NCBI GenBank assembly: GCA_964587005.1
Contig: CAZPJW010000003.1
Span: 6,392-70,391, forward strand
Reading direction: 5' to 3'
DNA from: Candidatus Woesearchaeota archaeon
Lineage (GTDB): Archaea; Nanobdellota; Nanobdellia; SCGC-AAA011-G17; PNOQ01
DNA length: 64,000 nucleotides
The notes under the pieces are model-generated. The model was not told the origin of the DNA and searched no databases. It was given only the letters and a program-made list of their open reading frames with translations. Each line of letters begins with the position of its first letter. The stretch's first letter is position 1. Position numbers and translations under genes: made by a program. Positions 2,190 through 3,158 of the stretch are shown piece by piece.

Positions 2190-3158
2190 ATGGAAAAATC
2201 TACCCAAAATAGAGAGGAATCTCGGGATTATAAGGCCCAAAGTATTCAGGTTTTAGCAGATGTTAGGACTAAATTAGACTTAGACTCAGTTGCTGAAATT
2301 CTCTCTCAAAGAGGAGACATATCTAAGTTTTCTGAAAAGCATAGTATTAATTATTCTGCTTTAAAAAGGGGTCTTGAAGAGCACAAAATTTTGGGTATTT
2401 TTCCGTCTTTGGATAAGTGTAAGGCGCCTATTCTTGCAAGAATAAGAAATAATAGAGAATTACAGATGTTTTCAAAGAAATATGATATATTTAATTTAAA
2501 GGCAAGACAATTACTTAAGGTTGTTAGGTTTTGGAGAAAAGAATTGGAAAATGATCCCAAGTTATTATTAACACCCTTACAACATGATTTGATTATTGGT
2601 AGTACTATCGGGGATGCATTTATTAGAAAGAGAGAAAGAAACTCTTGTTTTAGGGTGGGACATACAAAAAAGCAAGAAAAATATTTAAGGTTTAAATATA
2701 GTATTTTTAAAGAGTTTTGTATAACGGAACCTTCTTGGAATACAAGAGTGATTAAAAAAAAGAATACTGTAAGGACATTAGAAATGGCGACTGCTACCCA
2801 TTATGTTTTTAATTACTATCAGAAATTGTTTTATAGGAATGGGAGAAAAATAATAACTCAGGACATTCTGAATTTATTGAATCCAAGAAGTTTGGCATTT
2901 TGGATTTGTGATGATGGTAGTTACTCCAATAATCAAGGATATATTATTCTATGTACTAATTCATTTTCTCTGGAAGAGCATAAAATTATGAAAAGATATT
3001 TTAATGAAGTTTGGAATTTAAATCCTACGATTGGTTTTAGAGATAGAAAATATTATTATTTGAGGTTTAAACAAGAAGATAGCAAGAAACTTGTTGAGAT
3101 TGTGAAGAAGTTTATTCCTAAATCAATGAAATACAAAATTGGAGAGGAAAATGAGTAA
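2190..3158 (+). CDS. Free-standing double-motif LAGLIDADG homing endonuclease-like protein with an N-terminal extra domain
   Basis: Two LAGLIDADG-type motifs about 100 aa apart ([12 protein letters not shown] and [12 protein letters not shown]); 3' end overlaps the gyrB start by 20 nt. Confidence 0.55.

Follow-up and report, generated by a model that had tools for sequence, protein, structure and literature searches.

Directly ahead of gyrB, the window analysed here (the whole stretch of 64,000 nucleotides (nt) from a Candidatus Woesearchaeota archaeon, contig CAZPJW010000003.1) carries a chimeric open reading frame (ORF) with an ATG start that encodes a LAGLIDADG endonuclease-like protein of 322 amino acids (2190-3158, plus strand). 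Alignment with related loci indicates that this ORF is an in-frame insertion into the gyrB coding sequence itself, using the resident promoter and start codon. We consider it probable that the insertion is a site-specific mobile homing-endonuclease cassette of a kind that replaces a gene terminus and that it invaded gyrB between the VRKR and the P of the GyrB VRKRP motif; its product is predicted to cleave DNA. The insertion site lies near the end of the GyrB N-terminal arm and first helix. One of the two parts of the proposed cassette encodes a LAGLIDADG endonuclease of the I-SceI type that has an additional helical domain at its N-terminus; the other is a short replacement gyrB 5' end, in which a ribosome-binding site and an ATG precede about 20 codons.

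The structure of the insertion emerged from comparing empty and occupied alleles. As proposed in the initial annotation, we compared related gyrB loci and found several that lack the ORF, among them L169 and L173. L169 is a metagenomic relative whose GyrB (P0271) is 92% identical to that of the window; it has no endonuclease, and its gene order is PIN, a 152-bp spacer and gyrB. In a nucleotide alignment, window positions 2038-2256 (spacer, promoter, ATG and 22 codons) were ~97% identical to L169, homology was lost at 2257, and it was regained at ~90% identity at ~3211, inside gyrB (AGACCGGCCATGTAT...). Between these flanks, which are collinear and 90-97% identical, L169 has 23 nt (AAGGGTTAGATGCGGTTAAAAAG) and the window ~954 nt. 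Because homology breaks at 2257 and resumes at ~3211, we place an in-frame cassette of ~954 nt at 2257-3210 (plus strand), where L169 has no counterpart; its right edge is ambiguous within 3208-3213. The empty site in L169 reads ...GAAGGGTTAGATGCGGTTAAAAAGAGA to the left and CCTGCTATGTACATAGGAAGT... to the right of the insertion point, and the window's own occupied junction reads ...GGTTTGAGCGCAGTTCGGGCTAGA and CCGGCCATGTATATAGGGAGT....

The sequences on either side of the cassette are those of a resident gyrB. To the left, the resident start and first 22 codons (2190-2256, plus strand) now form the endonuclease N-terminus: these 67 nt differ from L169 by one mismatch, and endonuclease residues 1-22 are identical to the N-terminus of P0271 (22/22). 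To the right, the resident remainder of gyrB runs from P-A-M-Y-I-G onward (3214-5037, plus strand), with ~90% nucleotide and 92% amino acid identity to L169/P0271. Within the cassette lie a donor-derived junction ('ADVRTKLD...'), the helical domain and LAGLIDADG_2 core of the enzyme with its stop codon, and a ribosome-binding site and ATG for gyrB together with ~20 replacement codons of that gene. The ORF had been described as free-standing and outside any intein or intron. The second half of that description stands, in that Pfam found PF03161 as the sole domain, with no Hint or intein domain, and Rfam found no intron RNA family in the window (one tRNA only); the first does not, because the ORF is not a self-contained gene upstream of gyrB.

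The same comparison revises the regulatory assignment. The TATA box credited to the ORF as its own, a TATA-like TTTATAAAC at ~2144-2152 (plus strand), belongs to the resident gyrB promoter and 5' leader (2038-2189, plus strand), a region with ~95-97% identity to the sequence upstream of gyrB in the ORF-less L169 and also conserved in L167 and L168. A leaderless transcript had been suggested as well; a conserved GAGG-type ribosome-binding motif (~2178-2183, plus strand) just upstream of the endonuclease ATG makes a short leader more likely.

A second pair placed the insertion at the same point. L002 (occupied) and L173 (empty) encode GyrB proteins that are 90% identical and share Cpn60-CBS-...-gyrB-HD synteny; the left break between them falls exactly after AGAAAAAGG (VRKR), and homology is regained at ATGTATAT. 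Both pairs put the insertion between VRKR and P; the left boundary differs between them, following VL in the window and VRKR in L002. The distribution is patchy. The endonuclease is missing from those relatives whose GyrB comes closest to the window's (79-92% identical); their GyrB starts MEKST..., and they share with the window the synteny S27ae, S24e, Spt4, Rpo7, PIN ... gyrB, gyrA, eIF2-gamma, S6e. A GyrB scan of genome contigs added, among the matches listed (mostly bacteria), a further Woesearchaeota locus without the cassette, L007. Among the 120 nearest GyrB homologues of L002, 99 had a resident-type N-terminus with VRKRP and ~20 were variants without the Lys, a few of which carry the cassette-type N-terminus MSPEEKK.... 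Blind calls of presence or absence from this N-terminal signature were right in both of two cases (P0392 empty, P0398 occupied). In at least two clades, close relatives thus differ in whether they have the element, which uses one insertion point; this bears out the earlier suggestion of a gyrB-linked mobile homing element.

The nuclease assignment was confirmed by a profile search. Residues 134-301 matched LAGLIDADG_2 (PF03161) over profile positions 3-168 of 168, with an E-value of 4.5e-40 and 137.8 bits (the Pfam cut-off is 25 bits); NCBIfam returned no match. The two LAGLIDADG motifs, previously put at about 100 residues apart, are separated by exactly 100, with D142 (codon 2613-2615) in the first (GDAF) and D242 (codon 2913-2915) in the second (CDDG). 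Sequence matches in the PDB were I-WcaI (6x1j, 9e-19) and I-SceI (~3e-14), and D142 and D242 align with D44 and D145 of I-SceI, which we take to be the acidic metal-binding residues at the C-terminal end of each LAGLIDADG helix. Loss of the catalytic acidic residues had been named as grounds for rejecting the assignment; both are invariant across 118 homologue sequences, where they belong to 16 invariant positions in an alignment with a mean column identity of 62%.

An AlphaFold2 model built on the alignment of these 118 homologues reached a mean predicted local distance difference test score (pLDDT) of 93 and a predicted template modelling score of 0.87. Residues 1-15 are disordered in the model, residues ~21-125 are all-helical, and the remainder forms a canonical LAGLIDADG core, a single chain with two LAGLIDADG helices in a pseudo-dimeric alpha-beta-beta-alpha-beta-beta-alpha arrangement. 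Its top Foldseek matches were I-WcaI (E=1e-16) and I-SceI (4e-15), with target-normalised template modelling scores of 0.78-0.79. The Pfam match, the Foldseek matches and the invariant D142/D242 together delimit an I-SceI-like nuclease core at 2589-3092 (plus strand). The extra N-terminal domain of ~120 residues noticed at the outset corresponds to the helical part (2250-2564, plus strand), which has seven helices with pLDDT >90 and is kept only in the gyrB-associated family; hits beyond the family cover residues ~125-320 only. Foldseek found no significant structural match for this domain, the best non-LAGLIDADG hit being ParB (E=0.13), and it may be an extra DNA-binding module. WhiA and the bI3 maturase were weak structural matches of the endonuclease model. 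Sequence and model identify the product as a single-chain LAGLIDADG endonuclease of the I-SceI type (PF03161), with predicted cleavage activity. I-SceI-like endonucleases make site-specific double-strand cuts that leave 4-nt 3' overhangs. No further copies of the endonuclease were present in the window, and the insert showed no compositional anomaly (guanine-plus-cytosine fraction 0.303 versus 0.321 for the window).

A protein search identified more than 120 full-length homologues of ~310-320 amino acids, 50-59% identical to the window's protein and all from metagenome-assembled genomes of Woesearchaeota/Nanoarchaeota type. In an exhaustive representative search the full-length architecture was confined to this tight family, and distant matches covered the nuclease core only. 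The endonuclease gene lay directly upstream of gyrB, overlapping it, in the first three genomic contexts. We then assembled a set of metagenomic loci from the best 80 matches plus these earlier contexts, a choice by which intact copies are over-represented. In this set, gyrB begins at the endonuclease stop in all 84 loci with sufficient downstream sequence, all from Woesearchaeota-type DPANN archaea. A search of IMG/VR found no virus-borne copies, the only hit being a distant one at 28% identity. Outside the gyrB-inserted family, another uncultured archaeon carries a distant LAGLIDADG_2 homologue, 33% identical over the core, ~3 kb upstream of gyrB and on the opposite strand (L054, 971-411, minus strand).

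The cassette also carries a substitute for the gyrB terminus that it displaces. The replacement 5' end, an ATG plus 20 codons (3151-3213, plus strand), is diverged from the empty alleles: its first 54 nt, counted from the arm Tyr, are 50-57% identical to them, and the next 27 nt are 81-85% identical. In the window's cassette-borne copy the Lys of VRKRP is replaced (VRARP). An overlap of 20 nt with gyrB had been annotated. The overlap exists, but that length assumes a TTG start at 3139, and the ATG at 3151 gives an overlap of 8 nt (ATGAGTAA, 3151-3158), which is also the modal length in the family (49/84 loci, with 11 nt in 16/84). As read from the sequence, a GGAGAGG ribosome-binding motif for gyrB (3141-3147, plus strand) sits inside the last endonuclease codons (KIGEEN), and both the C-terminal K-I-G-[EG] motif and the corresponding GGAG/GGAGG are conserved across the endonuclease family. 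The gyrB of the window is a single uninterrupted ORF. Because the cassette-borne gyrB ATG overlaps the endonuclease stop, translation of the two genes is probably coupled.

At its other end, the endonuclease family has a GyrB-like arm, with a consensus that starts Y-x-A-E-x-I-K-V-L-E-G-L-E-G-V-R-K-R and continues F-D..., versus P-S-M-Y-I-G in GyrB. The two gyrB 5' copies within one genome are 76% identical in protein and 62% in DNA, and where both encode the same residue they use the same codon in only 29% of cases, a share that does not exceed the one seen across genomes. On these values, recent conversion of one copy by the other was rejected.

In the mechanism that we propose, the enzyme would cut empty gyrB alleles at or near the point between ...GTTAGAAAAAGG and CCTGCAATGTAT..., and repair of the double-strand break on an occupied template would bring in the cassette along with neighbouring sequence, co-converted over a variable length. 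The variable left boundary of the window and L002 fits co-conversion during repair. Since the insertion is in frame, the endonuclease would be expressed from the resident gyrB promoter, start and first codons, and GyrB would be re-initiated from the cassette-borne ATG that overlaps the endonuclease stop. Recoding of the left half of the site, within the gyrB 5' end that the cassette brings, would shield occupied alleles from the enzyme.

The junction codons of occupied alleles are altered. The VRKRP motif is near-universal in GyrB, and its Lys codon lies 4-6 nt from the insertion point. This Lys is kept in 12 of 64 occupied alleles (lost in ~81%); the corresponding counts are 60 of 74 for empty loci and 97 of 116 for the nearest GyrB homologues, with Fisher p = 1e-13 and 6e-18, respectively, for a statistic that ignores phylogeny. 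We read the loss as a likely signature of self-immunity at a homing site whose exact target is itself predicted. The endonuclease gene is under purifying selection: in the least diverged pairs, the ratio of nonsynonymous to synonymous substitution rates (dN/dS) was 0.12-0.15 for the endonuclease versus 0.08-0.10 for GyrB. For the GyrB-like arm, the corresponding ratio of proportions (pN/pS) was 0.24 in 22 independent close pairs, the same as for the rest of the protein, with synonymous sites near saturation.

Along with the disregard of phylogeny in the Lys comparison, several points weigh against the proposed mobile cassette. Some empty alleles lack the Lys too, namely P0283 with VRARP (L170 2179-2290) and P0276 with VRTRP (L171 3501-3600); these may resist the nuclease or may mark sites from which a cassette was lost. 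A 'hit-and-run' origin of the empty VRARP allele P0283 was unsupported, at 70% nucleotide identity to the window's cassette-borne copy, and comparison at the nucleotide level gave no sign that such alleles and this copy recently shared an ancestor. We infer the target site from the insertion point alone. The donor of the window's copy is unsampled, since its closest known homologue is only 59% identical, and no pseudogenised copies were seen among the best 80 matches, a set that favours intact copies. Pairwise distances of endonuclease and GyrB are strongly correlated (r=0.83; Mantel 0/2000), with a rate of evolution in the endonuclease only ~1.1x that in GyrB. The correlation and the rate look more like long co-inheritance than frequent transfer. 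Transfers, if frequent, would have been mostly among relatives, because the two sets of distances correlate; phage MobA elements are likewise reported to track host clades for the most part (bioRxiv 10.1101/2022.08.31.505936).

The initial annotation had raised domestication, and a LAGLIDADG protein with a gyrase-linked host role, either as a regulator of the gyrBA operon or as a gyrase partner whose GyrB-like arm attaches it to the GyrB ATPase domain, would not exclude mobility. Strong purifying selection, a near-GyrB rate, co-varying distances and two gyrB 5' copies that have not recently converted one another are in its favour, as are the constraint on the arm (Y-x-A-x-x-I-K-V-L-E-G-L-E-G-V-R-K-R) in the 22 close pairs and the tie of expression to gyrB by the overlap and embedded ribosome-binding site. 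However, close relatives whose GyrB is 79-92% identical and whose synteny is the same do not have the gene, and in two clades ~80% of the nearest homologues of GyrB have an N-terminus of the resident type, which went with a cassette-free locus wherever this was checked. Descent from the 5' end of the resident gyrB accounts for the arm, the window's arm being identical to its relative's GyrB, and the arm is deleted or degenerate in several lineages, e.g. L004, L093, L099 and L119. Both catalytic Asp are kept, unlike in WhiA and maturases. Purifying selection leaves domestication some room, but with close relatives lacking the element we judge it improbable as the main story. Still less probable is an inactive remnant whose frame stays open only because gyrB translation needs ribosomes to read through it, the protein itself being functionless. 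The loss of gyrB's own promoter and start to the element would allow for this, as would the conserved 8- or 11-nt overlap and in-ORF ribosome-binding site, but coupling selects only for an open frame and not for conserved residues, and the dN/dS of 0.12-0.24, the invariant positions with both catalytic Asp and the mean column identity speak for a constrained protein.

We give hardly any credence to the idea that the endonuclease once belonged to an intein or intron and was set free when the splicing element was lost; the intein version of this had also been raised. Inteins are common in gyrB and gyrA of the same lineages (PF14890 in P0290, P0362 and P0394-P0397; gyrA of L174), and group I introns with LAGLIDADG_2 genes occur in rRNA genes of Woesearchaeota (PMC6125680), which makes an intron-borne ancestor of the nuclease domain plausible. 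The window's element, however, has no Hint domain, its nuclease belongs to PF03161 instead of PF14528, the type found in inteins, the junction is followed by Pro and not by Cys, Ser or Thr, and the ORF ends with a stop codon. Nor does it resemble a former intron: Rfam found no intron RNA in the window, the co-folded junction regions gave z=-0.69 with no bulge-helix-bulge or unusual pairing, and the entire insert is coding. RNA splicing of the insert was rejected on the same grounds of Rfam and co-folding.

The mobile cassette favoured here resembles known systems in part. I-SceI and I-WcaI share with the window's enzyme the Pfam family, the pseudo-dimeric single-chain fold and the two catalytic aspartates, but they are monomeric LAGLIDADG_2 enzymes of mitochondrial group I introns, whereas the window's enzyme is not intron-encoded and resides in an archaeal chromosome. 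It is ~25-27% identical to them, has an extra N-terminus of ~125 amino acids (gyrB-derived arm plus helical domain) and is fused to host-gene codons. WhiA and the bI3 maturase also add a helical domain to a LAGLIDADG scaffold; they are lineage-fixed and no longer have the catalytic acidic residues, whereas the window's protein keeps both Asp and is polymorphic among close relatives.

A closer architectural parallel comes from the mobile ORFs (mORFs) of fungal mitochondria, which insert in atp6 (Allomyces macrogynus) and in atp6, atp9, cox2 and nad3 (Glomus) and bring a foreign C-terminus (PMC3630166). As in our cassette, an endonuclease ORF, often LAGLIDADG, sits in a protein-coding gene without intron or intein, the native terminus adjoins it, and close relatives are empty (PMC3630166). 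The cassette shares the mORF hallmark of a diverged, foreign duplicate of the displaced terminus (3151-3213) that restores the gene. In contrast to the C-terminal replacements of mORFs in organelle genomes, it replaces the N-terminus of gyrB in a DPANN archaeal chromosome, captures the host promoter and start, and would re-initiate the host gene through the stop/start overlap. MobA of T4-like phages, the gene 39/gene 60 topoisomerase II element (PMC2988022; bioRxiv 10.1101/2022.08.31.505936), is likewise a homing-endonuclease element specific to a type IIA topoisomerase gene, with a short host segment deleted and a homologous replacement supplied. MobA insertions are recent within clades and the endonuclease tree mostly tracks hosts, much as for the cassette. 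MobA, however, is an HNH nickase that splits the Toprim domain into two polypeptides and is associated with 50-nt ribosomal bypassing; the cassette encodes a LAGLIDADG enzyme, leaves the gene functionally unsplit, sits at the N-terminal arm and has no recoding signal in the window, so the likeness is architectural only.

Among the papers searched we found none that links LAGLIDADG, gyrB and archaea or that describes such an element in archaea or in gyrB, and a survey of archaeal gyrases (PMC9348778) does not mention an endonuclease. The proposed cassette would mean that homing endonucleases can colonise an essential archaeal chromosomal gene without an intron or intein, by means of a spare terminus and the capture of promoter and start. 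It would offer hundreds of natural variants (50-60% identity) at one conserved gyrB site with matched cut and immune sequences alongside, a family useful for studying the evolution of LAGLIDADG specificity and for meganuclease engineering. For annotation, a chimeric, foreign GyrB N-terminus can mislead gyrB phylogenies and gene calls.

Some related loci carry a further change at the same junction. In nine of the 84, the gyrB 5' end supplied by the cassette has one extra C, 3 nt beyond the insertion point on its downstream side (L095 ~2849, L107 ~3360, L130 ~5038, L144 ~1311, L158 ~1352, L159 ~5020, L160 ~5016, L164 ~4987, and also L161); the window does not have it. The allele reads ...GTCAGGAGGCGCCCCCGCAATGTATATAGG..., and the extra C sits in a strictly conserved sequence (GTCAGGAGGCGYCCCCGCAATGTA). 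These alleles fall in four separate places on the endonuclease tree and are not monophyletic. The frames on either side of the extra C are intact and conserved, the downstream ORF is 600-1114 amino acids long where complete, and the 0 frame stops 22-25 codons past the site. The 0-frame codon after CCC is CGC, which is the rarest Arg codon in these loci (1 of 5,837 codons). A slippery CCC_C followed by CGC, with AGGAGG three nt upstream, makes this a candidate signal for programmed +1 frameshifting; alternatively, translation could initiate at the Met of MYIG with AGGAGG as the ribosome-binding site.

A bolder idea, which we put forward tentatively and think somewhat unlikely, is that the element and the essential gene hosting it are engaged in an arms race, and that this race has driven gyrase to be recoded through a +1 frameshift that immunises the homing site. 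Under that arms-race idea, the extra C would allow full-length GyrB to be made from these alleles only by programmed +1 frameshifting. A linked possibility, held with the same reserve, is that the arm docks the endonuclease onto the GyrB ATPase domain. In MobA a recoding signal blocks self-cleavage, and the nine frameshift alleles are a possible counterpart. If true, this would be an archaeal equivalent of the T4 gene 60 bypass, with a recoding signal that protects against the element's own nuclease. It would also open to experiment a programmed +1 frameshift that a selfish element has imposed on an essential gene of archaea.

Further observations concern the arm and the surroundings of gyrB. 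The GyrB-like arm, conserved in most loci, is deleted or degenerate in L004, L093, L099, L108, L109, L119, L127, L131 and L155; these could be older insertions that are decaying, or lineages in which an arm function was lost. In cassette-free relatives, the space between PIN and gyrB (L167 3695-4871, L168 4196-4862, L170 441-1954 and the P0272 locus) contains differing small unannotated ORFs, some of which share H-x-H-rich motifs, and it looks like a variable hotspot adjoining gyrB. Between gyrB and gyrA the window carries two HAD-family hydrolase genes (5039-5578 and 5541-6170), and the number of small genes there (HAD, HD, HIT, PNPOx) ranges from zero through one to several in related loci; this spacer is also variable, since its content of small genes differs among related loci. 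Inteins (PF14890) occur in GyrB of P0290, P0362, P0394-P0397, P0436, P0439-P0441, P0444-P0445, P0449 and P0481, with lengths of 770-1065 amino acids. The gyrA of L174 (5856-7902) has an intein with a LAGLIDADG_3 domain, and oversized gyrB ORFs were seen in L130 (1114 amino acids) and L095 (759 amino acids). Gyrase genes in these lineages are targets of several kinds of selfish element.

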